Shown here one piece after another: positions 360-63,986 of a stretch of 64,000 nt of DNA. Position 1 is the stretch's first letter; every line of letters starts with the position of its first letter. The stretch comes from Bacteroidales bacterium (GTDB lineage Bacteria; Bacteroidota; Bacteroidia; Bacteroidales; WCHB1-69). Under the pieces are notes generated by a model. It saw only the letters and a program-made list of their open reading frames with translations, made no database searches and was not told the DNA's origin. The stretch spans positions 118 through 64,117 of the forward strand of contig JAFTCA010000121.1 in the NCBI GenBank assembly GCA_017454945.1, in the 5' to 3' direction. The translations under genes and the position numbers were made by a program.

Positions 360-362
360 CAG

Positions 363-2701: not shown

Positions 2702-2835
2702 ATTTTTTTGATTTTAAGTTGAATATATTTTTTAGTTATTAGTTGTTAGTTGAGAGAGAATGTGAGGTGTAAAGAGTAAGTTTCAAGTTTTCTTTCTCGC
2801 CAGATACAATAAAAAAACGTGAATCATTTTTCGTT

Positions 2836-3012: not shown

Positions 3013-3013
3013 G

Positions 3014-3021
3014 CAAATATA
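3014..3021 (-). promoter_or_regulatory. Bacteroidota -7 promoter box (TATATTTG) driving the leftward operon
   Basis: Matches the TAnnTTTG consensus on the minus strand, upstream of the structured leader. Confidence 0.55.
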
Positions 3022-3151
3022 GTAAATTGTTTTACATCTGCAACATGGATTGTTTTTCAGCTGCAAAAATATAATGAAAACAGGCAGGCGGGCAAGTCCT
3101 AATTGGTCCGAATGAGGGAACGGAGAGATGAGAGTGGAGAGGTAAAAATCC

Positions 3152-3763
3152 TTATCCTTTATCTTTCGTCAATTCTTCTATCTTTTTTTCCAACGCAGCA
3201 ATTCGATCGTCGTTTTCTCGTTTTACAGAATGTTTTAATTTCAAAATGGCAAGATTTAGCTCAAACGACGTTTCACTGCTTCTTTTGGGTAAAGTATCAT
3301 CTAAAATCTCATTAACAAGTTGGCTACCGCGCTGCAACAACGATTGCCGCTGGGATTCACCATGTTCCTCGTTGGGCAGTTCAACGATAACCCGTGACAA
3401 TTCTTTCAACTTTGCAAATGTCTCCACTATAGCTATAGTGGTTTCTACCGCCTTAGGACTTTTCAGGATTGTTGCAAGCATATAGAGGCCTTTTTCTGTC
3501 AAGGCCTTAGGAAGATATTTTTTGTGCTGACCTCTTCCATTGCTCTTTAAGGTCAAAAATTTTGACCTTAAAGAATGAAATTCTTGATTATCAATCTGAA
3601 AGATATATCCATCGGGAAATTTCTTAGGATTGTTTCTTACTGCTTGATTGATTTCTTTGGTCTCCACTCCGTAGAGTTCCGCCACATCATAATCTAAAAT
3701 CACCTGCTGTTCGCGCAAGGTGATGATTTTGGATTCCACATCCATTGGTGTTAAATCTTTCAT
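3152..3763 (-). CDS. ORF6N domain-containing protein
   Basis: IITLREQQVILDYDVAELYGVETKEINQAVRNNPKKFP..YIFQ and ALTEKGLYMLATILKSPKA are characteristic ORF6N motifs. Confidence 0.9.
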   Translation of the reverse strand: MKDLTPMDVESKIITLREQQVILDYDVAELYGVETKEINQAVRNNPKKFPDGYIFQIDNQEFHSLRSKFLTLKSNGRGQHKKYLPKALTEKGLYMLATILKSPKAVETTIAIVETFAKLKELSRVIVELPNEEHGESQRQSLLQRGSQLVNEILDDTLPKRSSETSFELNLAILKLKHSVKRENDDRIAALEKKIEELTKDKG

Positions 3764-3867
3764 CGTTTTTTTTTATGAATTTTTTGAAACAAATCTATGA
3801 CAATACTAAGAGATTAGCAATACCCCAAACAACGATATATCACTATTTTTCAACAAGATAAACCGCA

Positions 3868-3959
3868 TTTTACAAAGGATAAAATGCCCTTTTGTAAGGG
3901 CAAAGTGTATTTACCCTTGCAAACGTGCGATATAGGGGTGCAATTTTTGTAAGGTGCAA
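3868..3959. promoter_or_regulatory. array of direct/inverted repeats upstream of the kinase promoter (operator-like)
   Basis: tttgtaagggcaaa 3891-3904 and tttgtaaggtgcaa 3946-3959 are direct repeats. cccttgcaaa 3914-3923 is an imperfect inverted copy. A TATTTTTG -7 box follows at 3983-3990. Confidence 0.4.
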
Positions 3960-4008
3960 CCCAAAAAAATGGGAGTTTTTTGTATTTTTGCTGCGGATTT
4001 TCAAGAAT

Positions 4009-42977: not shown

Positions 42978-43062
42978 AAGTGTCATCGTAACAATTCCAG
43001 CCAACAAAATTACACTATTTTACGCACCTTTTCTGAAAAAATCGCTACCTTTGCATATCAAA

Positions 43063-46485: not shown

Positions 46486-47439
46486 TTATTGAGGAGGTTT
46501 ATAAAATTCTCTCTGTTTAATTTCGTGTTCTGGGCGCTTCACATCAGGATTATAGCCTTTCACTTTAGGCAGATAGAGCCACTTGCCATTGTCGGCCACA
46601 AAACCCTGATTCAGACTCGATTCGGGCACCAGATAGGCAGGAATGCCATCCAATCCGTCTTCCAACGGCGCCAGCACATCGAAAATAATCAGATTATCCC
46701 AAACGGTTTCATAAATGGGCTTTCTCGTTTTGGGATCTTTCTTGCCCGTATTCAACTCATACGCCTGACGCTCGTACTTGAGCGACAGTACCGAATTTTT
46801 GGCATATTCCAATATCACACGGCTCACCTTGGAACTGTATTTCTTGAAAATCATGGCACCGAACATGGGAGTCTGGTCGGCCTTAAAATGCAGCACTTCG
46901 ATAATTTTCTGATTGGTAAACAAGTTGTTGCCATTCCAACCGAAGAGCGTGTAATAGGTCTTGTTCTTGGCTTCCAGCGGGACCACTTTGTAATAGATGG
47001 CGCCGTACCAATGGTTCTGGTCGCCAATCTGGGTGTTGGGATAATCTATCGTCCCGCGCTTGTCGTACAGCGGATAGATGACATACTTCTTACGGCGGTC
47101 GTTATAGACCTGCAGGAAACCGAAATTCTCGTAGGTAAAATCATCCTTCGGCACAAACCACGTGAAGATTTTGAAAAGCTTGTCGGGCGAAGTGACCACT
47201 GAGAAGTTCTTCACCGAATCCCAGCCGAACTTGAAAGAGTTGGGCTCCCAGAGAATCGACTCCAGCAGATTCATAAAGTCCTCATTCAACTGATAGCGTT
47301 CAATTTCCGAGGATGCCGAAACGACAGAATTGCGCAAATGTATCAGCGAATCTTCCCAAAAGCGGAAGTCGAACGAGCGCTGCGCAATGGCTCCCGACAA
47401 AGAGAACAACAGGACCGATACAAGAATGATACGCTTCAT
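46486..47439 (-). CDS. conserved hypothetical exported protein
   Basis: Signal peptide MKRIILVSVLLFSLSGAIA at ATG 47439; W(Y)GAIYY and YYTLFGWNG motifs. The longer track ORF overlaps the ABC-F gene. Confidence 0.75.
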   Translation of the reverse strand: MKRIILVSVLLFSLSGAIAQRSFDFRFWEDSLIHLRNSVVSASSEIERYQLNEDFMNLLESILWEPNSFKFGWDSVKNFSVVTSPDKLFKIFTWFVPKDDFTYENFGFLQVYNDRRKKYVIYPLYDKRGTIDYPNTQIGDQNHWYGAIYYKVVPLEAKNKTYYTLFGWNGNNLFTNQKIIEVLHFKADQTPMFGAMIFKKYSSKVSRVILEYAKNSVLSLKYERQAYELNTGKKDPKTRKPIYETVWDNLIIFDVLAPLEDGLDGIPAYLVPESSLNQGFVADNGKWLYLPKVKGYNPDVKRPEHEIKQREFYKPPQ

Positions 47440-47553
47440 TTTTATCAAAATGCAAAGATAATACTTTTCATAAAGCGAAGGGCGAACTTTCACATTTTCG
47501 GGGCGGAAGCCGAACCGGAAATTATCGTATTTTTGCACCCTCAAACTGGTGAT

Positions 47554-49470
47554 ATGATTTCTATCAACAAACTTTCGGTCAATTTTACCGGCGATTTCCT
47601 TTTCCGCGATGTCTCTTTCGTCATTGGCGACAAAGACCGCATAGGCCTTGTCGGCAAGAACGGCGCCGGAAAGTCCACCCTGTTGAAAATCATACACAAG
47701 GAGATGGAACCCGAGTCAGGCAACATCATCATCACTTCCGGCTTCCGCACAGGCTACCTGCCACAAGAGATCTTTGGCAAGTACGATACCACCATCTGGG
47801 ATGAAACCATGTCGGCCTTCACGGAGCAGAAAAAACTGGAGAAACGCATGGAGCAGTTGGGCGCACAACTGGCCGACCGCACCGACTACGAGTCGGACGA
47901 GTACGCCAACTTGGCCCAACAACTCTCCGACGCCACCGACCGCTTCCATCAACTGGGCGGCAACACCATGGAAGGCGATGCCGAACGCGTGCTGACGGGC
48001 CTCGGCTTCAAAGCCAGCGACTTTGCACGACCGATGAAGGAGTTCAGCAACGGCTGGCAGATGCGCGTGTCGCTGGCCAAGATCCTGCTGCAAAATCCTG
48101 AAATCATCCTCCTCGACGAGCCCACCAACCATCTCGACATCGAGTCCATCCAGTGGCTCGAAGATTACCTAATGAACTACGACGGCTGCCTCATTCTGGT
48201 TTCCCACGACCGCGCCTTCCTCGACCGTGTTACCAATAGAACGGTGGAAATCACCTTGGGCAACATTCAAGACTACAAATGCTCCTACTCCGAATACGTT
48301 AACCAACGATTGGAGCGCATCGAGTCGCAGCAGTCGGCCTACGAAAACCAACAGAAGGAGATTGCCCAAATTGAGCGTTTCATCGAGCGTTTCCGCTATA
48401 AGGCCACCAAGGCCAAGCAGGTGCAGAGCCGCATCAAACTGCTCAACAAGATGGAGAAGGTGGAAGTGGACACCATCGACAACTCCGCCATCTCGTTCCG
48501 CTTCCCCCCTGCCCCACACTCGGGCCGCGTGACCGTTGAGTGCGAAGCCCTCGACTTAGGCTACGGCGACAATCATGTGCTCAACCATGTGGACTTCCAC
48601 CTCGAACGCGGACAAAAAGTGGCTTTTGTCGGCAAAAACGGAGAAGGCAAATCCACCATGGTCAAGGCCATCGTCGGCGAACTGGCCCCACAAGGCGGCA
48701 CCGTCAAACTCGGCCATCAGGTCACCATCGGCTACTACGCCCAAAACCAAGCCGCCCTGCTCAATCCCGACAAAACCGTTTTCGAGACCATCGATGAAAT
48801 CGCAGTAGGCGAAATAAGGCCAAAAATACGCACCATACTGGGTAGTTTTCTTTTTTCAACAGAAGATACCGAGAAAAAGGTCAAAGTGCTCTCAGGAGGC
48901 GAAAAATCGCGTTTGGCACTGGCCAAGCTTCTACTCTCCCCTTTCAACCTACTCATCCTTGACGAGCCGACCAACCATCTCGATATGGCCTCGAAGGACA
49001 TCTTGAAAAACGCCCTGTTGCAATATGAGGGCAGCATGATTCTGGTATCGCACGACCGCGACTTCCTGCAAGGACTCAGCGAGAAGGTAATAGAATTTAA
49101 AGACCACCAGATAAAGACCTATTTAGGCGATGTATATGATTTCTTAGAGAAGAAGAAAATCGACTCTCTGCACGAACTTCAACAAGGCGGCGAAAAAGGC
49201 CCTGCCGAGAAGAAGATTTCGACCAACAAGGAGAATTGGGAACGGAAAAAGGAGATGGAGGCGGAAGAGCGCAAGCGCAACAACCGAATCAAACGTATTG
49301 AGGAAGAGATCTACCGACTGGAAGAAGAGCGCCAAGCGATAGAAGAGAAACTGGCCAAGCCCGAAGAGTACGCCGCCGAGATTGCCTCCGGCGAGCTGTA
49401 CAAAGCTTACGAAGCCGTCAAGAACAAAATCGCCGAACAAGAAGAGCTCTGGAGCGAGCTTATCGGCTAA
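47554..49470 (+). CDS. ABC-F family ATP-binding protein
   Basis: Two ABC domains (GKNGAGKST / FSNGWQMR; GKNGEGKST / LSGGEKSR), LLDEPTNHLD twice, no TM segments, coiled-coil tail. Start at ATG 47554, after a TATTTTTG box. Confidence 0.95.
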   Translation: MISINKLSVNFTGDFLFRDVSFVIGDKDRIGLVGKNGAGKSTLLKIIHKEMEPESGNIIITSGFRTGYLPQEIFGKYDTTIWDETMSAFTEQKKLEKRMEQLGAQLADRTDYESDEYANLAQQLSDATDRFHQLGGNTMEGDAERVLTGLGFKASDFARPMKEFSNGWQMRVSLAKILLQNPEIILLDEPTNHLDIESIQWLEDYLMNYDGCLILVSHDRAFLDRVTNRTVEITLGNIQDYKCSYSEYVNQRLERIESQQSAYENQQKEIAQIERFIERFRYKATKAKQVQSRIKLLNKMEKVEVDTIDNSAISFRFPPAPHSGRVTVECEALDLGYGDNHVLNHVDFHLERGQKVAFVGKNGEGKSTMVKAIVGELAPQGGTVKLGHQVTIGYYAQNQAALLNPDKTVFETIDEIAVGEIRPKIRTILGSFLFSTEDTEKKVKVLSGGEKSRLALAKLLLSPFNLLILDEPTNHLDMASKDILKNALLQYEGSMILVSHDRDFLQGLSEKVIEFKDHQIKTYLGDVYDFLEKKKIDSLHELQQGGEKGPAEKKISTNKENWERKKEMEAEERKRNNRIKRIEEEIYRLEEERQAIEEKLAKPEEYAAEIASGELYKAYEAVKNKIAEQEELWSELIG

Positions 49471-49616: not shown

Positions 49617-51155
49617 TTATTTCTTCATGATTCTGAAGATAGCAGCACGGTGTTCTTCACGGCTGGGCTCAGTAATGTTGTTCTTGTTTTCCTTATCCTT
49701 AACGGTGTAAGCAGCCGTTCTGATTTGGTTTTCAGGAACGCCCTTTTCGATGAAGATACGTTTGATGCTTTCTGATCTGCGTTGTGCCAGGTCTCTGTTG
49801 TGTTCTTCAGTACCCAGGTCGCAGGTGTAACCTTCGATGATTACATACAGACTCTTATCTTTCTTCAATACCTCAACGGCATTGTCGATGTGATCGTTTT
49901 GTTCGGTGATCTTAGGAATATCTTTATCCAGGTCGAACAGGATCTTAATCTTAGACAAGCTTTCGGCCAGTTCTTTGATATTCTTCTTTTCTTGCGGGCT
50001 CATCTTCTTGCCATTGCCATTGCCATTGTCATCGCCTTCATCATCATCGTCATATCCTTCAGGACATTGAGGAATAATGTAAACGACTTCGGTGGTCTTT
50101 TCAACACAAGGAGTAGCGGCTTTCTTCATCATCTCTTCGTAGAAACGTTTCTTCAGAGATTTTTCAGACTTCAGGTCAGCATTGATGTGGATACCAACCT
50201 TAACACCTACTTGGAGCAGATGCCATTTGGTTCTTACGCTGATACCGTTGTCGATATTCTCTTGACGTTTGTTGAATTGATCATGATAATCGGAACCCAG
50301 CAAGCCATTGTATTTAATACCCTTGGTCAAGTCGGTATTATTTTCAATGAAAGTGTGTTTGTTTTCATCTTTGGGAAGAATATCGAGGAAACCGATGCTG
50401 CAGAACAAACCGGTGTAGAAATCAACCTTGTTGTTCAATGCAAAGATGGCACCAAAATCAGATTGGAAATCAAGTGAGCATCTCAGTTTGGTTCTGCCAT
50501 TGCCGCCTTCGAAATCGTAGGTAGTGAAACCGTGTTGTTCCATATCTTGATACAGAACATCGAGGTATTCGTCATAACCCTTGGTGATCAACTCGCCATT
50601 AGACATCATTGAGTGGTTGTAAACAGGGAAATAACCCTTCAAACCCATAGCTGCCCAGAGGCCGATCTTATTGTTGAATCTCCATTCGAATTGAGCTGTC
50701 AAAGGCACTTCGATAGCCGTAACATATTGTTTCTCGAACAAATCATTGGTAGTGTAAAGCAAATCGTAGTTGCTGGGAGTGTAACCTTCGGGAACATATT
50801 CGTCACCGCCGGCATTCTCTTGTACGCCCATCAAATTCAAGTTTGCTTTAGCGTGGATATTAGAAACGCCAACACCTATACCAATTCCCCAATGTTGATT
50901 GAAGAAGTATGAATAACCTATTTCAAAAATAGCACCTAATGAATAGGATTGTCTGATTTCGGGAGCAGGTATTCTTTTGTAGATGTTGTTAGTAAAAGCG
51001 CCTCCAAAGTGGATATTAACTCGGTTGTGGGAGAAATTAGAAGCTACAGTCGTATCTTGCGGAGCAGCAGCCGACTTAGTTTCATCCTGCACATCCTGAG
51101 CAAACGAGGTAAACATTGCTAAAATAAGACTGATTAAAACTAATTGATTTTTCAT
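49617..51155 (-). CDS. outer-membrane beta-barrel fused to an OmpA-like peptidoglycan-binding domain
   Basis: Signal peptide; amphipathic strands (GAIFEIGYSYFFNQHWGIGIGVGVS, AIEVPLTAQF, VGVKVGIHI); acidic/Gly linker; ILFDLDK, IEGYTCDLG...NRDLAQRRSESIK and HRAA. Confidence 0.9.
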   Translation of the reverse strand: MKNQLVLISLILAMFTSFAQDVQDETKSAAAPQDTTVASNFSHNRVNIHFGGAFTNNIYKRIPAPEIRQSYSLGAIFEIGYSYFFNQHWGIGIGVGVSNIHAKANLNLMGVQENAGGDEYVPEGYTPSNYDLLYTTNDLFEKQYVTAIEVPLTAQFEWRFNNKIGLWAAMGLKGYFPVYNHSMMSNGELITKGYDEYLDVLYQDMEQHGFTTYDFEGGNGRTKLRCSLDFQSDFGAIFALNNKVDFYTGLFCSIGFLDILPKDENKHTFIENNTDLTKGIKYNGLLGSDYHDQFNKRQENIDNGISVRTKWHLLQVGVKVGIHINADLKSEKSLKKRFYEEMMKKAATPCVEKTTEVVYIIPQCPEGYDDDDEGDDNGNGNGKKMSPQEKKNIKELAESLSKIKILFDLDKDIPKITEQNDHIDNAVEVLKKDKSLYVIIEGYTCDLGTEEHNRDLAQRRSESIKRIFIEKGVPENQIRTAAYTVKDKENKNNITEPSREEHRAAIFRIMKK

Positions 51156-51200
51156 AATATTGATATTTTTTATTTTCGTTATTACTTATTTATCTTACTT

Positions 51201-51247
51201 ATTCCGGTTGGCCGACGGCTTCATGCGAAGCCGTCAACCTCGGGAAT
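51201..51247 (-). other. intercistronic stem-loop without a U tract, between the giant gene and the OmpA-like gene
   Basis: gacggcttc 51214-51222 / gaagccgtc 51227-51235, with outer attccg/cgggaat pairing. Confidence 0.55.
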
Positions 51248-51251
51248 ATGT

Positions 51252-54200
51252 TTAATGTACAATAATGAATTTAACAGTCTTGATTTCGTTAGTACCAGTC
51301 GTTACTCGGCCGAAGTAGGTGCCAGCAGCGTGGAAGCCACGTACCTTGGTAACTTGTTCGATTACCGAGATGTGCTGTACGAGAGCACCCTTGTCATCGT
51401 AGATGTCAAGTACGCCACCTTCGAGTTCTTCCTCGGTTAACGGGAGTTCGATGGTTACTTCTTGATCAACGTGAGCAGGTGTCGGGTAAACCTTGATACG
51501 AGCCGCAGTAGCAATTGCAATTTCGCAGGATTCGAATACTCTACCATCTTCGGTCATTGCCCATAATGAGTAGTATCCGTTCAGACCACCAACCTCATTG
51601 TAGTATTGGCCAGTAGCACCGGGGATAGGCTCACCATTCTTGTACCATTGGTAAGCTACGAATCTGTAACCACCGTTGGTCTCAGGATTGTTATTGGCAA
51701 CGACAACGTCATCCCATCTTTGTTCAACAACCTTACCAGCACCACCAGCGCCCATGAGAACTCTAACGGTTACAGGATAGATACATTCGTCGATCAGGAT
51801 GGTGAATTCGTAATCGCCAGGTTCAGCACCAGTAAAGTCGATGTTGATGTTGCTACCGTCGAACGGTTCGTCAGTGTAATCATTCATACCGTAATCTGAG
51901 AGACCGGTGGTCGAGAATGCGGTAGGATTACCAGAGATAGCCGTTACGTGGAATGTAGCAGTAGCGTTTTCATCAGGACAAACCTTTACAAAATTGGTGT
52001 CGAAATCCATATCGGATACAACTACGGTTACGTATGAGTCAGCAGCGTTCGGAGCAGCCTCGCAGAAGGCATCGCCTAAGCTGTAGATGTGGTAAGTAGT
52101 TGTCTTGGACGGAGTAACGAAGATGCTATACGGATTTTCATAGGTTGTGTATGAAGTCGTAGCATTGGTGTTCATATCTTGTACGAAGAAGGTGAACGGA
52201 GCAGTACCAGTGAAGGATACGATGATTTCTGCAGTTTCGTAAGTACAGATGATGTCGCTGCCTTCTGCTGTTTCAGCAATTGCGGTAGGAGTAGCGTGAA
52301 CTTCAACCTTGGTTCCTTCGGGTGCCTCGAGTACGCAGTTGCTACCCATAGGTCCGTTGTAGGTCGGATAGTAGAAGTAAGTGCCTTCCTTAGCGATATC
52401 GTAGCTGAAGCCACCGAGTTCGCCGTCAACGCCGCTTTCAGCGCCGTCAGAGAATTTCTTCCAGATGATGAAGCCACCATTGTTACCATTGTTATCCTGA
52501 ACACCACCCTTAACGGTAGCAGCAAGTTCGATAATTTCGCCTTCGCACATTTCAGGATATCTTACAACTGTAGAAGTCCAGTAAGGTTGAGTAACAACGT
52601 GAGTGGTTACTTGGTCTGAAGTCTGTTTACATGACTCAACAGTAGGAACGGCGGTTACAGTGTAGATGTATTCACCGTAGGTCAGGCTGTTGTCTGTAGT
52701 CAGAGTTTCACCATTGTCGGGGAGGATTCTGTTGTTACGTCTCCATTGATATTCGTATTCACCAACACCACCTTCGATTTGAGCAGTCAATTCGATAGAA
52801 CCGCCTTCGCAGACATCTAACAGACCGTCCCATACGATGGTTACATCAGGTTGATTAGCTACTTCAACAGTGATAGGTTCTGATTCAGCAGCGCAACCAG
52901 TCAGGATGGTGGATTCAGTTTGTTCAACAGTAACAACATATTCGTATGTACCTGCAACGGTCAGCATATCGGTGAAGGTAGCACCCGTTACGTTCGAGAT
53001 AACCTCGCCGTTTCTGGTCCATCTGTAGGTTACATTTTCAGTATTTTCCATACCACCGGTTACGGTAGCGGTAAGAACGGTCTTACCACCAACGCACATC
53101 TCAGTGATAGAAGCTTCAGCAGTTACAACAGGATCTGCAACAACTTCTACATCTGCAGTAGCGGTGTATGTGCAATTTGAATTCGACTTGCCAGCGGCAA
53201 CCTCAACAGAGTATTGTTGTGTGCCTTCGGTAAGCGTGTTAGGTGTGGTGTAGGTAGCGTTGGTAGCACCAGCGATTTCTTCACCATTCAAGAACCACTT
53301 GTAGTAGTAAGTACCAGGAGTTGCAACGTTAGCAACCAAGGTTACGCTACCACCTTCGCAGATGGTTCCGTTACCAGTGATAACTGCAACAGGTCCTTCA
53401 ATTACGTCAGCAATTACAGACTCTGAAATTGCGTTACATCCGTGGTTGGTAGCACCGTCAACAACCGGGGTGATTTCTACAGTGTAGTAGTAGTGATCAG
53501 CGGTGTTGGTAGCTTCCAGTGAAGTCGGAGTGGTGTAGGTCGACTGGTTAGCACCAGCAATCTGTTCGCCATTGAGGTACCATGCATATTCGTACTCAGC
53601 ACCTTCGATACCGCCGATTACTTCAGCAGTCAGGACTACAGAACCACCTTCGCATACGTCTTGAGCACCCTTGATAACAACCTTCGGGTCAGCAACTACG
53701 TTAGCGTCAACAGCAGCTGATTGAGCAACGCAACCAGAAACGAGGTTCTTGATGGTTACGGTGTAGGTGTAATCACCTGCGCTGAGAGCGTTAGAAGTTA
53801 CGTATGAAGGAGTATTAGCACCGTAGATAGCAGTACCGTTTCTGTACCATTGATATTCGGTGTAGCTTTCGTCAGCAGGAGTTACTTCTGCAGTCAGAGT
53901 AACAGTACCACCAACACATACATTGTCTGCACCTTCGATGGTTACATCAGGAACTTCAAGTACGTTAGCTTCGAGTTCATTTGACCAAGCGGCACATTCA
54001 ACACCCGTTTGAGTTACATACAAGGTGTATTCGTAAGTACCAGCGGCCAATTCAGGATCGGTTACCAAAGTAGGATTGGTTTCACCAGCCAGGATGATAC
54101 CGTTTCTGTACCATTGATAGCTGTTTTCGCCAATACCACCAGTTACTTCAGATACGAGGAAGGTCTTACCGCCTTCGCAAACATCTGCGTCGTAGGTTTC

Positions 54201-57200
54201 AGCAACCTTGATGGTTACTTCAGGATCAGCAACTACTTGAACATTGGCTACGTTGGAGGTTGCGCCGCAGTTGTAAGCTGAATCAGCAGGTTCAACGGTC
54301 AACTGATAAGCATAGTCACCAGCAGTCAAATCATCAGGTAATGTGTAAGTATCCTGACCTTCAGCAACGGTTTCACCGTTTTGCTTCCAGATGTAGTTGT
54401 AAGTACCTAAGCCGTTAACTCCGGCAACACCGCCTTCGATAGTAGCAGTCAAAGTAGCTGTACCACCTTCGCAGATTGCGTCGTAGTTGCTTGCAATAGT
54501 TACAACAGGAGCTTTAACAACGGTTACCTCTACAACATTAGACTTATTGTTGCAGCCGGTCTTACCTTGCTTGATTTCTACAAAGAAGTTGTAAGAAGTT
54601 TCTCTTGCAGTCAGGTCGGCAATGGTCAGCGTATTGTTGGTCTCGCCTTCCATAGCTACATTGTCTTTGTACCATTGATACTCGGTGTCAGCGGTACCAC
54701 CAACTACGTTAGCAGTTAAGGTAACTTGACCACCTTCGCATACAACAGGACTACCTGCAACTTCAACTTCTACAGTAGGATTAGCATAAACGGTAACGGT
54801 TTGTTCTGCAGTGTAAACTTCAGATTCGCAACCGCTAATAGGTTGAGTAACCTTAACAGCGTAAGTGTAAACGGTAGAGTCACCGTCGGTTGTCAAGGCG
54901 TATTCAACGAATTTCTTACCGTTGATACCTTCAAGTACTTGACCGTTTCTGTACCAAGTGTAAACTGCTTCGCCTTCGAATGCTAATGAATCAATAGCTT
55001 CGATTTCTACAGCACCACCTTCGCAGATTTCGGTTTGTGAGAAGGTAATAGAATCAATCTTAGGATCTGCCACAACGGTCAGTTTAATAGTATCACCAGC
55101 AACGCAGTCTGATGTCTTCTGGCCTACGGATACGATGAACTCGTATTCACCGGCGGTCAGGTTCTTAGCATTGTAGGTGGCTTGGGTTGCACCAGCGATT
55201 TCGGTGGTGTCACCGTCAACTACCTTAGTCCATTGATACATCAGGTTGTCGGCATTGTAATCAGCCAGGTTAGCAGTGAAGGTTGCTTCGCCGCCTTCGC
55301 AGATTGCAGTGTCGGTTGCGGTTACAGTTACGATAGGAGCAGCGTTAACCAATACTTGGAACGGAGCGCTTACTGCTTCGCAGCCGTTGTTTCTATTAAC
55401 AACTACCGTGAAGATGTAAGGATCAACACTGTCGTTCAGCAGAGTATCAAGTTCTTTACCTTCGGCAATCTTAACATTGTCAAGTCTCCATTCGTAAGTC
55501 ATATCAACAGCGTCAGTCAGGGTGTCATTTACATTGGCAGTCAAGTGAACATTGGTACCGTTGCAGATGATAGGATCACCACTGATAACTACAGAAGGAT
55601 TAGCATTAACAACTACCGTCTTCGAGTAAACCATCTTGGCGTCGCAGCCCGTACCAGCCAGCGTTACAACTGCGCTGTAAACGAATTCTGCTTGGTCGCC
55701 ATCGGTTACGGTCAGATAGTCAGTAAAGGTTGAATCTACAACGCCTTCCATCAGAGCACCGTTCTTGTACCAAGTGTAGGTGGCAGCACCATTAATGCTG
55801 TCGTTCTTGGTTACGAATGCAGTTACTACGATAGGAGCACCTTCGCAGATCATAGTGTCGCTAACAGAGATAGAGTCGATAACAGGATCAGCAACTACAG
55901 TCAGTTTAGCTGAGCCAGTAGCTTCGCAGTCTGATGTCTTCTGACCTACGGTTACGATGTACTCGTAATTACCTGCGGTCAGGTTCTTAGCGGTGTAGGT
56001 TGCTTGGGTTGCACCAGCGATTTCGGTGGTGTCACCGTCAACTACTGCCCATTGATACATCAGGTTGTCGGCATTGTAATCAGCCAGGTTAGCGGTGAAG
56101 GTTACATCACCACCTTCGCAGATTGCAGTGTCGGTTGCGGTTACAGTTACGATAGGAGCAGCGTTAACCAATACTTGGAACGGAGCGCTTACTGCTTCGC
56201 AGCCGTTGTTTCTATTAACAACTACCGTGAAGGTGTAAGGATCGATGCTGTCGTTCATCAGAGTATCGAGTTCTTTGCCCTCAGCAATCTTAACATTGTC
56301 AAGTCTCCATTCGTAGGTGATTTCAGCAGCGTCGGTCAGGGTGTCATTTACATTGGCAGTCAAGTGAACATTGGTACCGTTGCAGATGATAGGATCACCG
56401 CTGATAACTACAGTAGGATTAGCATTCACAACAACTGTCTTCGAGTAAACCATCTTGGCGTCGCAGCCCGTACCAGCCAGTGTTACAACTGCGCTGTAAA
56501 CGAATTCTGCTTGGTCGCCGTCGGTTACGGTCGGATAGTCAGTGAAGGTTGAATCTACGATGCCTTCCATCAGAGCACCGTTCTTGTACCAAGTGTAGGT
56601 GGCAGCACCGTTAATGCTGTCGCTCTTGGTTACGAATGCGGTTACTACGATAGGAGCACCTTCGCAGATCATAGTGTCGCTAACTGAGATAGAATCGATA
56701 ACAGGATCAGCAATTACATTCAATTTGAAGGTATCGCCAACAACACAGTCTGAAGTCTTCTGGCTTACGGCTACGATAAATTCGTATTCACCGGCGGTCA
56801 GGTTCTTAGCTGTGTAAGCATCCTTGGTTGCACCAGCGAGTTCGGTGGTGTCACCATCGGCTACCATAGTCCATTGATACATCAGTTCGTCAGCATTGTA
56901 ATCGTTGAGGTTTGCAGTGAAGGTTGCTTCGCCGCCTTCGCAGATTACAGTGTCAGTTGCAGTGATGTTAACTACAGGAGCTGCGTTAACCAATACTTGG
57001 AACGGAGCGCTTTCGGTACGACAACCAGCATTTCTTGTTACAACAACAGTGAAGTTGTAAGGATCAACACTAGCTTCGAAGAGAGAATCAAGTTCTTTAC
57101 CCTCAGCAATGGTAACATTGTCGAGTCTCCATTCATATTGAACTGCTAAGGTGTCACCAGTGATGGTATCATTAGCATTGGCAGTCAAGTGGATGTTGTT

Positions 57201-60200
57201 ACCTGCGCAGATGACAGGATCACCGCTGATAACTACAGTAGGATTAGCTACCACTTGTACATTGAATGTATCGGTTGCGATAGCGCAAGTGTAGTTAGAA
57301 TAGGTTACTTCAACTGCGTAGAGATAGTTGGTAACATCGTAATCGGCGGTCAGCGGTGATGATGAATAGTAGTTCTTGTCAGCACCTCCGATCTTCTTGC
57401 CGTTTACATACCATTGATAGTAAGGAGTACCAAAGTAAATTGAATCTTCAGCATTGGTCAAGTTCGAATCAATGATTGAGAAGTTAACCTGACCACCGTC
57501 GCACATAACGTAGAGGTCATTAGCTTCTTTGATTTCAATTTCTTTAAGTTCTCTAGCGGGAACGATTTCGAATGTATCGGAAACTGCGCTACAAATTGAG
57601 GTTGCGAATACAGATTCTACAAAGTACTTACCAGCTTCGTCGAAGTTGTAGTAGTTTTCGTAGGTAACAGCAACAGTGTCGCTATCTGAAGTGAACCAAA
57701 TCCATTTGTAGGGTTGTTCAATCATGCTTGAGAATGTCTCAGCTACGAAAGTTGTAGTAGCACCGGGGCAGAGGTTGGTGTCACCCTTAGCCAGTACAAC
57801 AGGAGTTTCGATAACATTGAAGTAGAATACAGGTGAAAGAACGCTTTCGCATCCGTCGCGGGTGATTTCTACGTAGAACTCGTGGTTACCAGCACCGAGA
57901 GAGTCGGTATTGATTACGTATTGAGGTTCGGTAGCACCTACGATATAGTCACCGAAGTATTTCCATTGATATTTATGGCCGATTTGGTCACCTTCAACGA
58001 TGGCGGTCAGGGTTACGATTGAACCTTCGCAAGCAGATTCAATACCTTCGATACGAACGAGGATATCGTTAGCAACGATGGCTTGAACGATGCCAGATTT
58101 TGCGGAGCAACCGGAAGCTGAATCGGTAACTTCTACAAAGTAGTAGTATTGACCAGCAGCCATGTTAGAAGGAGTATTGTAAACTTCTGCGTTGGCACCG
58201 GCGATAGGTTGTTCAGTACCATTTTCGCCTGACATATACCATTGATAAGTATAAGAACCGCTACCACCAGCAACCTGAGCAGTATAAGTTACAGAGGTTG
58301 ACTGACCGTTGAGAGCAACGTTTTGCGGTGAAGCAGGAGTGATAGCAACTTGCAGTGTGCCGTAGTCGGGAAGTTCAACTTCAGCCGTAGCAGCAACAAC
58401 ACCACCAGCCATGATAGCTTCGATGGTATATTTACCAGGAGCAGCGTTGTTCAATACGTTAGTAGCTTCAGAAAGTTCTTCGCCGTCGAGAACCCAGTGA
58501 TAACGATTAATTGAAGAAGCGTCGCCAACCGGAGTAACGGTGATGGAAGCAGTCTTCTGTGAGCAATCGTAACCATTAACATCAACGTCGAGGATGATAG
58601 TATCCATTACATGGAGTACAAATTCAGAAGTGATGGCCTCGCAACCACAACCTGATTGCTTAATAGCAGCATAGTAGTGGTGATCGCCGTAAGCCAAGTC
58701 AGCAGGTAATCTCAAGGTATCGCCAGTAGCACCTTCGATAAGTACATTTTCTTTGTACCATTGAACTTCGGTAACTTCGCCATAACCGCGAGATACGTTG
58801 CAAACGAGCATTGAATCGGTATAACCGAAGGGCAATACGGTAGGACCAGTGATTGATGCCATAGGATCGGACAGCACGGTGATGCGAACGCCAGGAACCA
58901 TTGAGTAGCAAGAGTTGGTATCGCAAGCGTGGCAGAGGAATGAGAAGCCAGATACTCTGATTTGATATACATAAGCAGTGGCGTTATTCTCATTTTCGTG
59001 CAAGCTCGGGTTGGTGATGAATGAGATAACAGTATCACCAGGCAGCGTGCTCATTTCTTCAGAAATAGGCATACCATTTTCAAATACTCTATAGTAGAAT
59101 ACATGTTTGTCTGAAGGAGCGTGTTTGAAGTAAGCCTTCGAATTGGTAATTGTAGCTGAAACTACAACACTACCACCTGAGCAGATAGTATCGTGATCTG
59201 CGGTGAGTTCAACCTGGATATTGGGGTGAACCTTGATCAGAGGAGTAGTAGCGTGGATAGGACAGTTGTAACCTTCGGTGTTGGCCAGCAAGTGGTAGCA
59301 GAATACACCACCTTCGTCCATTGCATCTTCGAAAGTATCCAGCGTGTCTAATGCATCTGAATAGTGAGGACACAAGTTGTCGAGATCAAATTCAGGACAA
59401 GTAAAGATACCTGAACCGGGATCAACCTCTTCAGCTTCGCACTTGAACCATTCGTAGGTTTGGATATCAGGTTTCTCTTCGGGTTTAATGATACCGTCGA
59501 GGAATACAGGAGTACCGGCACAAACTTCAAGTGCAGAAGGAACTGCGAGCAGCTCTTCGATCGGGTTCTTAGCTGTGTGAATAATGATAGAGTCTTCACT
59601 GTAGCAGCCAGTTACTTCGTTGAGAGCCTTAATGTAATAAATTCTCACTTCGTCTTCGTCGAACGGAGTCGTCGTCAAAGTGGGGAATGAGTTGAGGTCA
59701 AGTTGATCTGTAAAAATATATTCGCCAGTGAGAGAATCTTTCATTGACCAATAATATACAAACTCAGGATTCCAAGTATCTTGTTTCAATGTCAGGATTG
59801 TGTTATAGCCAGGACACGGTTTCAGATAGTTGGTATCGATAGTAACTGAAGGATTAGGATAAACAACCAACGTGTCGGTGAAACTCATTTCGCAGTCGGT
59901 GGTATCCTGATGTACGTTCAAAGTGATGTAGTGGGTACCTTCCTTCAGAGAATCGAAGAAGTGTTTAATTTCTTCAACATCGCTGGTGATAGTGGCTTGG
60001 CTCAGAGTAAGGGTTTGCTGACCAGGAGCAACTGGCAGGTCTTTCTCTTCCTTCAAAACCACAACATCCGAACCAGAACCGTAGGTCCATTGGTAATCGT
60101 AAGTGTACTTAACAATGTCGAAGGTAACATTAGCTACAAATTCAGCTTCGTCACCGTAACGCTGACAGATAGTGTCATTGTTAGAGGTGATGTGAATCTT

Positions 60201-63200
60201 TTCTTCAGTAACATATACTGTAAAAGTATCTGTCTTTTCACAGCCACTGAAGTCGCTGAAAGTAGTCAGTACAAATTGGTGTGCACCTATTGTTTCAAGA
60301 CCTGAGAAGATAACCGTGTCAATACCATAGATATTGGTTGCCACAGGTTTCGTATAGTCAATGTCCAAGGTGTCGGTAACAGCCTTCTTCACATTAGGAG
60401 TAGAAGTGAAGGTTACCGTATCGTTTGCGTTGAGAGCTTTCCAGAAGTATCTGAAAGGATTCTTTTCGGTGAGATATTCATCTTCGAATGCGGCACCAGC
60501 AAATACCACCTCAGCACCAGGACATACCTCTATTGAAGTGTATTCTAATTCAGTATTGGGTTTTGCATCAACAAGGATTTTAACACTGTCAGAAACTGCA
60601 TCGCAATCGCAGCCAGAGCAGCTGCCGTTATTGGAGACGGTCAATACCAAGCGGTAAGGGTTAACGCTGGGTTGAAGTTCGCTAACAGTCTCTTTGCTTA
60701 TGGTAACTTCTACCTTGTTAGTGTCTTTGTTAAGAGCACCGCTACCATCAGTAATAGACCATTGGTCGGGAGTATTGGCATCAACCAAAGCAAAGTTATA
60801 ATTCAACTCTTGCAAATTAGGATTCTGTGAAACATACTCCATAGCGTGGTTGATAACCGTGAATTCGAGTTTTACAGAACCGTCTTCGCAAAGCAGAGTA
60901 TCGTTGGGAACGATGATTTCGGGATCCTTAACCACTACAACAGTGAAAGTATCACGAACGTCGCAACCAAGTTCTTCGGCATCCTCAACAACCAATTCGA
61001 AGTTGTACGTACCGGGAACAATTGTATCATAGCTTGTAAACACATCATCCACATTCAAAGGATTAGCATAGGTTTGCGTACCCTTAGCAATCGTATCGGG
61101 AAGAGTAGCTCTAAAATTAGCGGGAGCCTCTACCAATATATATTTATAATTTACATCGCGGGTGTAAGGCATGCTCGTAGTCACTCTCGGATAAACTTGG
61201 AGTGAAGGATTGCCTTCGCATACGAAAGTGGAATCGGGAACATTTTCAATAACCGGATCTGGATAGAGATAAATCATGGTTGAGTCTTTTACAGAGCAAC
61301 CAGGCATATCGCTTACCAGGTTGAAGTAGAACTTAGCCGTATTGTTCTGCAAAGTATCGAAGTCCTTGTTAACAACGGTCAGATCCAATTTATCTTTAAC
61401 AGAATACATACGATCAGCATCCACTTCGCTGCAATTCAAATCAATAGTGTCTTTCTTGGTCCAAGTGGTGTGTGAAGCACCTTCGCCTTCTGACCAGAAA
61501 TATTTGAAGTTCATATCAGCGCAACTGTCAACCGTAAGAGCAGGGCCCTCAACGAAAGCAGTACCACCGTAGCAGATAGAATCAGCATCGGTCAACTCGA
61601 TTTGAGCTGGTTCGATAACCGAAACATACACGGTGTCATAAGCCAAGCAAGATTCATGAACCTTCTCTTGGTTATAAACTGTCACGGTAATTTGGTAAAC
61701 ACCTGGTTCGGTATTCGCAGTTGTAACGAATGTCAGGACAGAATCTGTACTGCTGGCATCGCGACCGTTGATTTGCCATGCATAATACAGTTTTGAAATA
61801 GGTTCAGCATTATTGGTAGCACGAACCAACAAAGTAGAGTCACCGCCCTTACACATAGTGAAATCTTCGGGGAAGAAGGTGATTTCGGGATCGGGATAAA
61901 CTTTCACGAGGATAGTGCTATCCACAACGCAGCCCTTCATCGGGATTTGTCCGTTAAAGAAGAACTGAGCGGTTACGCGGAAGAAGCTATCAGCTTCAAG
62001 CACACCCGTTGTAGCGTTTTTGTTATCTACCGAGAAATATCTTACAGGAGGAAGCGTATCGGTAACGGTCTCTTTATCGTTAGCCAACGACTCCCACATA
62101 TATTCCATGTAACCATTCTTGAATTCGATGGTAGCTTCGGCTGACAAGTTAGCTTCACCACCATAGCACAAGGTGTCGGTATTAACATAGGTGAATACGG
62201 GAGGAGCGATTACGACAACCTTCATCATAGTAGGCTCGGTTTCACAACCAGGAATGTCGGTACTATCGTATTTAGCTTCTACCATATAATAATATACACC
62301 AGGATCACCTTCCAGAGCAACCTTGAATTCAGAATCGCCCTTGGTGGAACCTGTTTGAACTTGTTGCGGATTAGTTCCTTGAGCATCGTCGCATGAATAC
62401 CAAGTGTAGTTCATATTGATACCAGTCAGACGATGGTCAACGGTTTTGACAGAAGCTACAGCACGCAGCGTATCGGAAACGCAGATGGTATCAGGTCTAG
62501 CCTCAACGCTGATGGTAGGATTGTCGTAAACCACCACATCGATTGTGTCGGTAGCGTAGCAACCTTGGCTCTTCAAGAAATCGCTCTGATAAACTTCCAC
62601 GCGAGCACGAATCGTGTCGTAATTAGGAGTGTTATCAGTCTTATACAACTGTTTCTCTGCATTACCAATAACTTGTTCAGGGCGTGATGAAGCTTGAACC
62701 GTAGTCCAATTCGAACCAGATTCATCAACACCAACAATGTCCCAACCAAAATAGTTAACAACATTATCCAAACCCGTGTTTTCTACAATCTTGGCAGCAA
62801 TTTCCAATGTATCTCCCACACATACTGTCTGCTTGTTAGAAGCTACATAAGTATCAACTTCGGGAGCAGTGTGGAAAGTAACCGTAACAGGTTGTGAGTA
62901 AATCACAGGAGTGAAGGTACTGATAGAATTGGGTCCCTTCACAGTAGTGATGGTACCATAGAAAGAGATTGCTTTACTTGTTACATGTTCAGCCTTCATT
63001 GCATCCACATACGGGGTTGCATCTACGATGAAGCCAGAACCACGGTTATCGGATGAGCTAACATCCAGAGGATCTCTCTTCTTGGTGTCCAACAATTTTC
63101 CGTCTTGGTCATAGAAACGGAAATACAATGTATCGGTGGCACGACCATCGTCGTTCTGAGTGGTCAACTGCAAACCGAACACACCTGTACCGCAGACATC

Positions 63201-63800
63201 CTGAGCCACAATAGCTGTAAAGGGAGCTGTGGGATTGTTGGGATTGATGGCGACTGTCTTTGCCATTACTGAAAAGCCCGGATAGTGTTGAGCATCCAAA
63301 TAGGTAATTTTCAACTCAGCCGACTTCGACAAGGACGGATTGGTTTTGTTATAAGCCGTCACACGATAGAACAGCGTGCCATTACTATTTGCCGCATCGG
63401 TCACAACGGAGTCCTTACCGGTAAAGTCTGGCAACTCGGTCCATTCGGTTTCATCGCCTTTCTTCATCTCCCATTTGGTCTTCGTGAGATCAAACAGGTC
63501 ATCATCACCCAAATAGAGCCACAACTGAACACTTGTGTTCTCCATTAATTCGGCTTCGGTTTGTGGATTATCAAGGTCCACAATACCAATACCTACTTCT
63601 ACGTCATCCCATGTGTCATCGGTGACAGGCAGGGGCGCCGCAAATGGATGTGAAGTCAGACATTGCGAAATCGTCGGGGAGTAAGCGTAAGTCAACGCTT
63701 TCGCGTTCGCTAAATTCCCTGTGACAACTTCACTTCGAGCTTGGCAAGTCCCTATTACTAGGAACGCCATCAGGAAATAAATCATAAACTTTTTCATCAC
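51252..63800 (-). CDS. giant (4182 aa) T9SS-secreted surface protein made of Ig-like repeats
   Basis: Signal peptide, then dozens of ~90-aa domains (ICEGG..TLTA...Y.YQW..NG..I.GAT..TY....L.AG.Y.Y.V.V......C). A QRWDDVV..NN..YQWYKNG domain precedes the type-A-like CTD (IKVYPTPA...DIYDDKGALV...GTYFGRV...KFIIVH). Start is GTG 63800 or ATG 63797. Confidence 0.92.
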   Translation of the reverse strand: MMKKFMIYFLMAFLVIGTCQARSEVVTGNLANAKALTYAYSPTISQCLTSHPFAAPLPVTDDTWDDVEVGIGIVDLDNPQTEAELMENTSVQLWLYLGDDDLFDLTKTKWEMKKGDETEWTELPDFTGKDSVVTDAANSNGTLFYRVTAYNKTNPSLSKSAELKITYLDAQHYPGFSVMAKTVAINPNNPTAPFTAIVAQDVCGTGVFGLQLTTQNDDGRATDTLYFRFYDQDGKLLDTKKRDPLDVSSSDNRGSGFIVDATPYVDAMKAEHVTSKAISFYGTITTVKGPNSISTFTPVIYSQPVTVTFHTAPEVDTYVASNKQTVCVGDTLEIAAKIVENTGLDNVVNYFGWDIVGVDESGSNWTTVQASSRPEQVIGNAEKQLYKTDNTPNYDTIRARVEVYQSDFLKSQGCYATDTIDVVVYDNPTISVEARPDTICVSDTLRAVASVKTVDHRLTGINMNYTWYSCDDAQGTNPQQVQTGSTKGDSEFKVALEGDPGVYYYMVEAKYDSTDIPGCETEPTMMKVVVIAPPVFTYVNTDTLCYGGEANLSAEATIEFKNGYMEYMWESLANDKETVTDTLPPVRYFSVDNKNATTGVLEADSFFRVTAQFFFNGQIPMKGCVVDSTILVKVYPDPEITFFPEDFTMCKGGDSTLLVRATNNAEPISKLYYAWQINGRDASSTDSVLTFVTTANTEPGVYQITVTVYNQEKVHESCLAYDTVYVSVIEPAQIELTDADSICYGGTAFVEGPALTVDSCADMNFKYFWSEGEGASHTTWTKKDTIDLNCSEVDADRMYSVKDKLDLTVVNKDFDTLQNNTAKFYFNLVSDMPGCSVKDSTMIYLYPDPVIENVPDSTFVCEGNPSLQVYPRVTTSMPYTRDVNYKYILVEAPANFRATLPDTIAKGTQTYANPLNVDDVFTSYDTIVPGTYNFELVVEDAEELGCDVRDTFTVVVVKDPEIIVPNDTLLCEDGSVKLEFTVINHAMEYVSQNPNLQELNYNFALVDANTPDQWSITDGSGALNKDTNKVEVTISKETVSELQPSVNPYRLVLTVSNNGSCSGCDCDAVSDSVKILVDAKPNTELEYTSIEVCPGAEVVFAGAAFEDEYLTEKNPFRYFWKALNANDTVTFTSTPNVKKAVTDTLDIDYTKPVATNIYGIDTVIFSGLETIGAHQFVLTTFSDFSGCEKTDTFTVYVTEEKIHITSNNDTICQRYGDEAEFVANVTFDIVKYTYDYQWTYGSGSDVVVLKEEKDLPVAPGQQTLTLSQATITSDVEEIKHFFDSLKEGTHYITLNVHQDTTDCEMSFTDTLVVYPNPSVTIDTNYLKPCPGYNTILTLKQDTWNPEFVYYWSMKDSLTGEYIFTDQLDLNSFPTLTTTPFDEDEVRIYYIKALNEVTGCYSEDSIIIHTAKNPIEELLAVPSALEVCAGTPVFLDGIIKPEEKPDIQTYEWFKCEAEEVDPGSGIFTCPEFDLDNLCPHYSDALDTLDTFEDAMDEGGVFCYHLLANTEGYNCPIHATTPLIKVHPNIQVELTADHDTICSGGSVVVSATITNSKAYFKHAPSDKHVFYYRVFENGMPISEEMSTLPGDTVISFITNPSLHENENNATAYVYQIRVSGFSFLCHACDTNSCYSMVPGVRITVLSDPMASITGPTVLPFGYTDSMLVCNVSRGYGEVTEVQWYKENVLIEGATGDTLRLPADLAYGDHHYYAAIKQSGCGCEAITSEFVLHVMDTIILDVDVNGYDCSQKTASITVTPVGDASSINRYHWVLDGEELSEATNVLNNAAPGKYTIEAIMAGGVVAATAEVELPDYGTLQVAITPASPQNVALNGQSTSVTYTAQVAGGSGSYTYQWYMSGENGTEQPIAGANAEVYNTPSNMAAGQYYYFVEVTDSASGCSAKSGIVQAIVANDILVRIEGIESACEGSIVTLTAIVEGDQIGHKYQWKYFGDYIVGATEPQYVINTDSLGAGNHEFYVEITRDGCESVLSPVFYFNVIETPVVLAKGDTNLCPGATTTFVAETFSSMIEQPYKWIWFTSDSDTVAVTYENYYNFDEAGKYFVESVFATSICSAVSDTFEIVPARELKEIEIKEANDLYVMCDGGQVNFSIIDSNLTNAEDSIYFGTPYYQWYVNGKKIGGADKNYYSSSPLTADYDVTNYLYAVEVTYSNYTCAIATDTFNVQVVANPTVVISGDPVICAGNNIHLTANANDTITGDTLAVQYEWRLDNVTIAEGKELDSLFEASVDPYNFTVVVTRNAGCRTESAPFQVLVNAAPVVNITATDTVICEGGEATFTANLNDYNADELMYQWTMVADGDTTELAGATKDAYTAKNLTAGEYEFIVAVSQKTSDCVVGDTFKLNVIADPVIDSISVSDTMICEGAPIVVTAFVTKSDSINGAATYTWYKNGALMEGIVDSTFTDYPTVTDGDQAEFVYSAVVTLAGTGCDAKMVYSKTVVVNANPTVVISGDPIICNGTNVHLTANVNDTLTDAAEITYEWRLDNVKIAEGKELDTLMNDSIDPYTFTVVVNRNNGCEAVSAPFQVLVNAAPIVTVTATDTAICEGGDVTFTANLADYNADNLMYQWAVVDGDTTEIAGATQATYTAKNLTAGNYEYIVTVGQKTSDCEATGSAKLTVVADPVIDSISVSDTMICEGAPIVVTAFVTKNDSINGAATYTWYKNGALMEGVVDSTFTDYLTVTDGDQAEFVYSAVVTLAGTGCDAKMVYSKTVVVNANPSVVISGDPIICNGTNVHLTANVNDTLTDAVDMTYEWRLDNVKIAEGKELDTLLNDSVDPYIFTVVVNRNNGCEAVSAPFQVLVNAAPIVTVTATDTAICEGGEATFTANLADYNADNLMYQWTKVVDGDTTEIAGATQATYNAKNLTAGEYEFIVSVGQKTSDCVAGDTIKLTVVADPKIDSITFSQTEICEGGAVEIEAIDSLAFEGEAVYTWYRNGQVLEGINGKKFVEYALTTDGDSTVYTYAVKVTQPISGCESEVYTAEQTVTVYANPTVEVEVAGSPVVCEGGQVTLTANVVGGTADTEYQWYKDNVAMEGETNNTLTIADLTARETSYNFFVEIKQGKTGCNNKSNVVEVTVVKAPVVTIASNYDAICEGGTATLTATIEGGVAGVNGLGTYNYIWKQNGETVAEGQDTYTLPDDLTAGDYAYQLTVEPADSAYNCGATSNVANVQVVADPEVTIKVAETYDADVCEGGKTFLVSEVTGGIGENSYQWYRNGIILAGETNPTLVTDPELAAGTYEYTLYVTQTGVECAAWSNELEANVLEVPDVTIEGADNVCVGGTVTLTAEVTPADESYTEYQWYRNGTAIYGANTPSYVTSNALSAGDYTYTVTIKNLVSGCVAQSAAVDANVVADPKVVIKGAQDVCEGGSVVLTAEVIGGIEGAEYEYAWYLNGEQIAGANQSTYTTPTSLEATNTADHYYYTVEITPVVDGATNHGCNAISESVIADVIEGPVAVITGNGTICEGGSVTLVANVATPGTYYYKWFLNGEEIAGATNATYTTPNTLTEGTQQYSVEVAAGKSNSNCTYTATADVEVVADPVVTAEASITEMCVGGKTVLTATVTGGMENTENVTYRWTRNGEVISNVTGATFTDMLTVAGTYEYVVTVEQTESTILTGCAAESEPITVEVANQPDVTIVWDGLLDVCEGGSIELTAQIEGGVGEYEYQWRRNNRILPDNGETLTTDNSLTYGEYIYTVTAVPTVESCKQTSDQVTTHVVTQPYWTSTVVRYPEMCEGEIIELAATVKGGVQDNNGNNGGFIIWKKFSDGAESGVDGELGGFSYDIAKEGTYFYYPTYNGPMGSNCVLEAPEGTKVEVHATPTAIAETAEGSDIICTYETAEIIVSFTGTAPFTFFVQDMNTNATTSYTTYENPYSIFVTPSKTTTYHIYSLGDAFCEAAPNAADSYVTVVVSDMDFDTNFVKVCPDENATATFHVTAISGNPTAFSTTGLSDYGMNDYTDEPFDGSNINIDFTGAEPGDYEFTILIDECIYPVTVRVLMGAGGAGKVVEQRWDDVVVANNNPETNGGYRFVAYQWYKNGEPIPGATGQYYNEVGGLNGYYSLWAMTEDGRVFESCEIAIATAARIKVYPTPAHVDQEVTIELPLTEEELEGGVLDIYDDKGALVQHISVIEQVTKVRGFHAAGTYFGRVTTGTNEIKTVKFIIVH
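54778..57248 (-). repeat. intragenic tandem triplication (~820-nt unit, about three Ig-like domains)
   Basis: The anchor ggattagc recurs at 54778, 55597, 56416 and 57241 (spacings 819, 819, 825). The anchor ccattgatacatcag recurs at 55230, 56049 and 56871. Confidence 0.85.
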
Positions 63801-63978: not shown

Positions 63979-63986
63979 CAAAATTA
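63979..63986 (-). promoter_or_regulatory. Bacteroidota -7 promoter box (TAATTTTG) for the giant gene
   Basis: Matches TAnnTTTG about 180 nt upstream of the start codon. Confidence 0.55.

Follow-up and report, generated by a model that had tools for sequence, protein, structure and literature searches.

We describe a pair of adjacent genes in a 64,000-nucleotide stretch of DNA from a Bacteroidales bacterium (lineage WCHB1-69; GenBank assembly GCA_017454945.1, contig JAFTCA010000121.1, positions 118 to 64,117), hereafter the window, in which a gene for a giant immunoglobulin (Ig)-repeat protein bearing a type IX secretion system (T9SS) sorting signal is followed by a gene for a protein that joins an outer-membrane beta-barrel to an OmpA_C domain. 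We think it fairly probable that this barrel/OmpA protein, here called the partner, is the dedicated base or anchor of the giant fibre, and that the two genes make up a cargo-anchor module. A dedicated cognate partner is favoured because four lines of evidence fit a mode of working like that of PorP together with PorE: the linkage of the two genes, their co-divergence, the abnormal conservation of the C-terminal sorting domain (CTD) of the giant protein, and the existence of partners that combine a CarboxypepD_reg domain (CRD) with OmpA_C. The features on which the argument turns are as follows.

51252-63800, minus strand: gene for the giant Ig-repeat T9SS cargo, an open frame running 4,182 codons from a GTG at 63800
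51504-51734, minus strand: terminal Ig-like "pre-CTD" domain, residues 4023-4099 of the giant protein, reading RWDDVVVANNNPETNGG...YQWYKNG...GQYY...GGLNGYY...C
51255-51491, minus strand: type A T9SS CTD, residues 4104-4182, assigned from TIGR04183, PF18962 and an AlphaFold2 (AF2) model
49617-51155, minus strand: partner gene (512 aa), with signal peptide, barrel, periplasmic helix, Cys segment, acidic disordered linker and OmpA_C
50181-51026, minus strand: outer-membrane beta-barrel domain of the partner, residues ~44-325, PF13568 (OMP_b-brl_2), 33 bits
49620-49955, minus strand: OmpA_C-like domain of the partner, predicted to bind peptidoglycan, residues ~401-512, PF00691, 50.7 bits

The association of the two genes is evident well beyond the window. 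A sequence-only reading of this DNA had described the giant Ig-repeat protein, the barrel and OmpA protein and a gap of 96 nt between them; both open reading frames and their domains were confirmed, and the gap is indeed 96 nt. That reading had also proposed a check on whether the pre-CTD domain is linked to barrel/OmpA genes, and the check, run on 151 genomes of the window's family with the partner and the last 160 aa of the giant protein as queries, gave a clear answer. Each of the 59 strong matches to the C-terminus is followed on the same strand, after 85-100 nt, by the partner (the single apparent outlier is a split match), and these 59 loci span at least 15 genera in which the flanking genes differ. 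Strong partner matches without a cargo number four, every one of them at a contig end. Divergent paralogues, which appear as weak matches, have their own divergent barrel protein downstream in 16 of 23 cases. Elsewhere in the Bacteroidales, each of the seven barrel matches, from three families and including the cultured Acetobacteroides hydrogenigenes (partners WP_131837645.1 and WP_131837648.1), adjoins a match to the C-terminus (7/7), while full-length orthologues were confined to the window's own family among 400 genomes sampled across the order. In all, these searches yielded some 80 or more cognate pairs.

Searches made from the proteins themselves gave a similar picture. Three partner homologues (57%, 46% and 44% identity) lie 84-94 nt past giant Ig-repeat genes of at least 1,820, 4,714 and 5,404 aa, and the genes downstream of these three are unrelated to one another (PhoH, a Cys/Met pyridoxal phosphate enzyme, and SecE-NusG). 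A search for related loci with an orthologue alignment returned at least seven, among them loci in metagenome-assembled genomes from the rumen, and a search for homologues of the partner protein returned more than 300, of ~505 aa, all from uncultured Bacteroidales and labelled in NCBI as "OmpA family protein" or "outer membrane beta-barrel protein". When 1.84 billion representatives were searched by profile, 1,360 matched at E <= 1e-30, a number that is inflated by the internal Ig repeats and serves qualitatively. At one locus (L048, G440:C131:52100-55485) a frame of 14,117 codons, among the largest seen in the family, ends in the pre-CTD domain and a type A CTD, with a 537-aa barrel and OmpA gene 85 nt downstream. 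No paralogues were found in the window's own genome.

Within the family, the two genes occur together or are absent together, and the partner is absent from roughly half of the genomes, which indicates that it is not a housekeeping OmpA. Since the flanking genes vary and non-coding DNA precedes the giant gene, the comparison across genomes indicates that the conserved unit is exactly these two genes. They also diverge together: pairwise identity between cargo C-termini correlates with that between partners at r = 0.90 over 36 pairs, a value that none of 2,000 permutations reached (Mantel test), and the same correlation among 15 divergent, paralogous pairs is 0.85, reached by none of 5,000 permutations. 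Where a genome has several modules, the cognate pairs stay distinct, and the modules are equally far apart in both genes.

The C-terminus of the giant protein carries a second unusual signature. Among 21 orthologues, mean pairwise identity rises from 28% in the upstream Ig region, the passenger, to 51% in the pre-CTD domain and 63% in the CTD. As a control we used one other type A cargo, the M1-family metallopeptidase of the window (40665-43007, minus strand), which has a clear type A CTD (PF18962, 32.9 bits), along with its orthologues in the same genomes. There the pattern is reversed, with 51.5% identity in the catalytic part and 25% in the CTD. Because the CTD of the giant family is better conserved than its passenger (63% against 28%) and the control runs the other way (25% against 51.5%), this comparison with a single control cargo indicates that the CTD is constrained far beyond the needs of a generic export signal. 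The inverted pattern raises doubt, without amounting to proof, about whether PorU removes this CTD and links the protein to anionic lipopolysaccharide (A-LPS).

The sequence-only reading had singled out a distinct "WDDV" domain just before a type-A-like CTD, and both parts of that description stand. In the giant protein the hallmark is RWDDV...NNNP.TNGG...YQWYKNG, and the consensus over 33 C-termini is KWDDV..V.N...(F/Y)..YQWYKNG..I....QYY.E.GGLNG.Y.V....DG.....C, running directly into VYPNPA and the remaining CTD; the domain is kept in every orthologue and paralogue aligned. On the terminal copy, a hidden Markov model (HMM) of the domain reaches 113.5 bits, against at most 24 bits on 22 internal repeats, which match it through the YQWYKNG half only, indicating from sequence that the pre-CTD domain is a distinct unit, a specialised terminal form of the Ig repeat. 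The CTD scores 31.6 bits with TIGR04183 in the genome scan (cut-off 23) and 22.9 bits in a whole-protein hmmscan; with PF18962 it scores 21.2 bits, under the cut-off of 27, and the paralogues score 27.7-38 bits. Type A CTD cargos are defined by a C-terminal domain of ~75 aa matching TIGR04183/PF18962, and the giant protein fits this definition. A type B CTD was rejected, an NCBIfam scan at E <= 0.01 having returned NF038111 and TIGR04183 and no TIGR04131.

An AF2 model of the last 200 aa of the giant protein has a predicted local distance difference test (pLDDT) score of 91 (91.3) and consists of tandem beta-sandwiches; the pre-CTD domain is at pLDDT ~90 or higher, and the CTD (residues 121-199 of the 200) is built from seven beta-strands and one short helix. 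The best PDB fold matches to this model are the Ig domains of GhpA, followed by generic Ig/FN3 domains. The match to GhpA reflects generic tandem Ig domains at 13-16% identity, a resemblance in fold alone, and does not speak for homology.

The partner has the overall plan of the OmpA family. Its sequence reads as an N-terminal barrel and a C-terminal PF00691 domain with a conserved core predicted to bind peptidoglycan. Gln directly after the signal-peptide cleavage site is a habit of the Bacteroidota, and the partner fits it: the signal peptide is cut before Q20, which is invariant. The AF2 model, built on 44 sequences, has an overall pLDDT of 75, with barrel strands at 80-95, followed by a helix (residues 334-347), a conserved segment with Cys, an acidic linker that is disordered, and OmpA_C. 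From this model the barrel probably has 8-10 long strands, 10 being likeliest by strand parity, and long, variable loops. Its fold matches are full-length OmpA, OmpA-TM, Ail, NspA, OpcA and OmpT, and those of the C-terminal domain are the C-domain of C. gingivalis OmpA, Pal, and the PorE C-terminal domain 6TOP. Conservation follows this division, with the strands of the barrel kept, the long predicted loops most variable, and OmpA_C at a mean orthologue identity of 61% with T444, N453, R460, G472 and R503 invariant. We also note that residues 334-365 after the barrel, predicted to be periplasmic, are conserved, and that residues 340-365 (~50061-50138), between the barrel and the acidic linker, read P.C...K.TE..YIVP.CP, with two Cys and a near-invariant Pro362.

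The sequence-only reading had mentioned the cognate PorP/SprF barrels of type B cargos; the barrel of the partner is not PorP-like. PF11751 at E <= 0.1 matches none of the 44 family members, and hhalign gives a probability of ~1% against three PorP proteins of the same genome, which themselves score 129-210 bits; PorP/SprF homology was rejected on both counts. Membership in PorE (NF052230) was rejected as well: the OmpA_C part alone matches, with 21.9 bits where the cut-off is 600. The partners of the divergent paralogues are of three kinds: barrel with CRD and OmpA_C, barrel with OmpA_C, or barrel alone (272-367 aa). In the first kind, CRD and OmpA_C make up the C-terminal half of the PorE architecture, the barrel replacing the tetratricopeptide repeats (TPR) and the propeller. 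Because barrel-only partners exist, OmpA_C is not obligatory, and the family-wide comparison indicates that the barrel is the constant element of the partner and the wall-binding domain a frequent add-on.

Type A cargo is thought to end up on A-LPS and type B cargo on PorP-like barrels cognate to it, in some cases together with wall anchors of the PorE kind. A profile scan of the genome found PorU (1,255 bits, over its cut-off), three PorP/SprF genes, ~73 type A CTDs, and, outside the module, five PorE-like genes that match most of NF052230, the best at 576 bits and so below the cut-off of 600. Besides the Sec signal of the giant protein, the T9SS parts searched for and found are PorU, PorP/SprF, PorE-like proteins and type A CTDs. 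Because PorU, type A CTDs, PorP/SprF and PorE-like genes are all in the genome, both T9SS anchoring styles coexist with the module, which comes on top of the usual routes for type A and type B cargo, both of them available. On contig C5 of the same genome, a PorP/SprF-like gene followed by a PorE-like gene (105768-107976, minus strand) forms the canonical type B arrangement, and PorU (76918-80229) adjoins another PorP-like gene (75307-76170).

We propose that the giant Ig-repeat protein would be exported by Sec and then by the T9SS, by way of its type A-class CTD, and that the next gene, co-transcribed with it, would supply a cognate small barrel of the OmpA/OpcA kind. At the outer membrane the barrel protein would hold the Ig-like pre-CTD domain, perhaps along with a CTD left uncleaved, while OmpA_C, on its flexible acidic linker, would join the barrel to the cell wall and let a fibre several thousand residues long bear load. 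Co-transcription, physical binding of the two proteins, the anchoring role of the partner and the fate of the CTD are the parts of this proposal that we infer.

The closest known systems are those in which type B cargo is bound by cognate PorP/SprF-like barrels and PorE-like proteins are proposed to give a static, wall-anchored complex, as in P. gingivalis PG1035-PorP-PorE and F. johnsoniae Fjoh_3952/3951/3950 (PMC9143113, PMC12618676). The module resembles these triads in that a cargo gene is followed by a cognate barrel gene and an OmpA_C module, with several cognate pairs per genome, and in that paralogous partners combine CRD with OmpA_C, like PorE in its C-terminal half. It differs from them in having a type A CTD, a barrel outside the PorP/SprF family, and barrel and OmpA_C on one polypeptide that lacks the TPR and beta-propeller of PorE; moreover, canonical PorP and PorE genes are present besides the module in the same genome. 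By analogy, the module may be a functional match for the triad of type B CTD, PorP(SprF)-like barrel and PorE-like protein, with another kind of barrel and a signal of type A class.

A second parallel is the grappling hook of Aureispira, in which the giant T9SS substrate GhpA, with its Ig domains, builds a long appendage on the surface, a base density having been seen by subtomogram averaging, and GhpB and GhpC, encoded downstream, are an outer-membrane barrel and an OmpA-like protein described as PorP and PorE homologues (bioRxiv 10.1101/2024.01.29.577165). The module shares the giant Ig T9SS substrate with barrel and OmpA genes downstream; unlike the partner, GhpB and GhpC are two separate proteins homologous to PorP and PorE, and the organisms differ in phylogenetic class and lifestyle. 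PorU and PorZ, whose type A-like CTDs are uncleaved and stay with the outer-membrane barrel partners PorV and PorQ (PMC10947112), set a precedent for a type A-class CTD retained as an anchor, as may be the case here, although both are T9SS components and not giant adhesins, and their barrels come from other families. The OmpA family itself (E. coli OmpA; C. gingivalis OmpA, PDB 5WTL/5WTP) supplies the top fold matches and the layout of small N-terminal barrel, linker and C-terminal OmpA_C, whereas the partner barrel is ~280 aa with long strands and loops, as against ~170 aa, and is tied strictly to a single cargo gene. In gene order, cognate pairing, a wall-binding domain and a giant fibre, which were all the criteria tested, the module works like the type B triads and the GhpA/B/C system.

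Several observations weigh against a dedicated anchor. The predicted extracellular loops are the least conserved parts of the barrel, which is a poor fit for the simple idea of CTD binding by a conserved loop. A type A CTD, in a genome with PorU and ~73 type A cargos, has cleavage and A-LPS attachment as its default fate, for which no barrel is needed. Co-divergence is also expected of any neighbouring genes that are duplicated and inherited as a unit. Finally, two cargos with pre-CTD and CTD (L049 and L050, on G402:C1 and G402:C62) are without an adjacent partner and are followed by convergent genes; they lie in a genome with several complete modules and may share a partner in trans.

There are two other accounts of the partner, each of which we regard as improbable. 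It may reinforce the envelope without touching the cargo, as an OmpA-type tether between membrane and wall that stiffens the envelope under an A-LPS-linked fibre whose CTD is cleaved as usual; the OmpA-like architecture and fold, the high conservation of OmpA_C beside variable barrel loops, and a type A CTD in a genome with PorU would all suit such a role. A generic tether, however, needs neither one distinct partner for each paralogous cargo nor co-divergence with the cargo C-terminus, barrel-only partners lacking OmpA_C exist, and the exceptional conservation of CTD and pre-CTD is left unexplained. Equally improbable in our estimate is that the barrel does its work ahead of export or in the course of it, either as a cognate shuttle of the PorV/SprF kind or as a periplasmic dock for the CTD of an extremely long substrate, and is no permanent anchor. 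Cognate pairing and a conserved CTD are what a secretion or assembly helper would show, the conserved post-barrel periplasmic segment at residues 334-365 with its two Cys would fit it too, and SprF-like proteins have been described as shuttles that determine where cargo ends up (PMC12618676). Yet a small barrel of 8-10 strands is unlike the FadL-like PorV, has no homology to PorP/SprF, and is fused to a peptidoglycan-binding domain that suggests a static role over shuttling. That the two genes are mere conserved neighbours with no functional link is highly improbable given adjacency in 59/59, 16/23 and 7/7 cases across families with changing flanks, gaps down to 4-18 nt, and the gain and loss of the genes together.

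The arrangement of the DNA around the partner gene is consistent with a shared transcript, and two further features are relevant here.

51197-51251, minus strand: intercistronic stem-loop with a core 13-bp GC-rich helix (51210-51239), a GCAU loop and an outer helix
49568-49597, minus strand: terminator-like 13-bp hairpin with a T-run, past the partner gene, the only canonical terminator-like site

The sequence-only reading had placed a terminator solely after the second gene. The one canonical site is indeed there, where it is shared with the convergent ABC-F gene (47338-49470, plus strand), but a strong U-less hairpin in the spacer had been overlooked. This hairpin folds at -30.5 kcal/mol (z = -6.3) and is followed by an A-rich, not U-rich, stretch; all 21 of the 21 orthologous spacers have a comparable U-less hairpin, each with its own sequence. 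The 96-nt spacer gave no match in an Rfam search and no TAnnTTTG promoter box in a pattern scan, and several divergent paralogue modules have a gene gap of merely 4-18 nt. Given a spacer devoid of promoter boxes, gaps this short in some paralogues and a terminator that lies only past the partner, the two genes are presumably co-transcribed, and the spacer hairpin would be a conserved intercistronic structure, either a stabiliser of the 3' end or a partial attenuator.

The giant gene itself has two more features, the second placed by pattern scan.

55048-57170, minus strand: three tandem units of 819-822 nt each (~274 aa, three Ig domains), from a repeat search and translation
63979-63986, minus strand: candidate Bacteroidota -7 promoter box TAATTTTG

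The codon after the GTG is an ATG at 63797, and the protein reads MKKFMIYFL from there, like the N-termini of orthologues (MKKF.IFFLM). Because orthologues begin MKKF, this ATG is probably the real start, giving a product of 4,181 aa. Read off the sequence, the N-terminus is a Sec signal peptide, MKKFMIYFLMAFLVIGTCQA; the protein then carries ~40 or more Cys-containing Ig/PKD-like repeats, with domain matches to Ig_3, PKD/PKD_4 and Ig_7. Orthologues range from 1.8k to 9.4k aa. The tandem units, whose copies share 76-94% DNA identity, look as if a block of three Ig domains had recently expanded within the gene; Tandem Repeats Finder reported nothing, the repeat period being greater than 500 nt. 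Such units are a site where short-read assembly could collapse copies. The candidate -7 box would lie ~180 nt upstream of the giant gene, and in other genomes ~430-470 nt of non-coding DNA precede it, with varying genes beyond. The window is nearly the entire 64,138-bp contig, and the giant gene therefore lies near a contig end. Positions 1-4000 of the window have a G+C content of 32-35%, against 45-55% elsewhere in it.

Together, these results describe a family of type A-class cargos with a cognate partner drawn from an unrelated barrel family and often fused to a wall-binding module, in which the CTD is kept far more than would be expected of a disposable signal. A literature search found no paper on a type A cargo that has a cognate barrel/OmpA partner of non-PorP type. 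The module occurs widely among uncultured Bacteroidales of the rumen and gut and includes their largest genes, and its presence in the cultured Acetobacteroides hydrogenigenes makes the hypothesis directly testable. We further suggest, as a tentative and rather doubtful extension, that the type A-class CTD escapes PorU and forms, with the pre-CTD domain, a permanent cognate dock for a non-PorP, OmpA-like barrel, in a third T9SS sorting and anchoring route. If true, this route would stand after A-LPS linkage and the type B/PorP system, and would give rumen and gut Bacteroidales wall-tethered fibres of up to ~9,000-14,000 residues.

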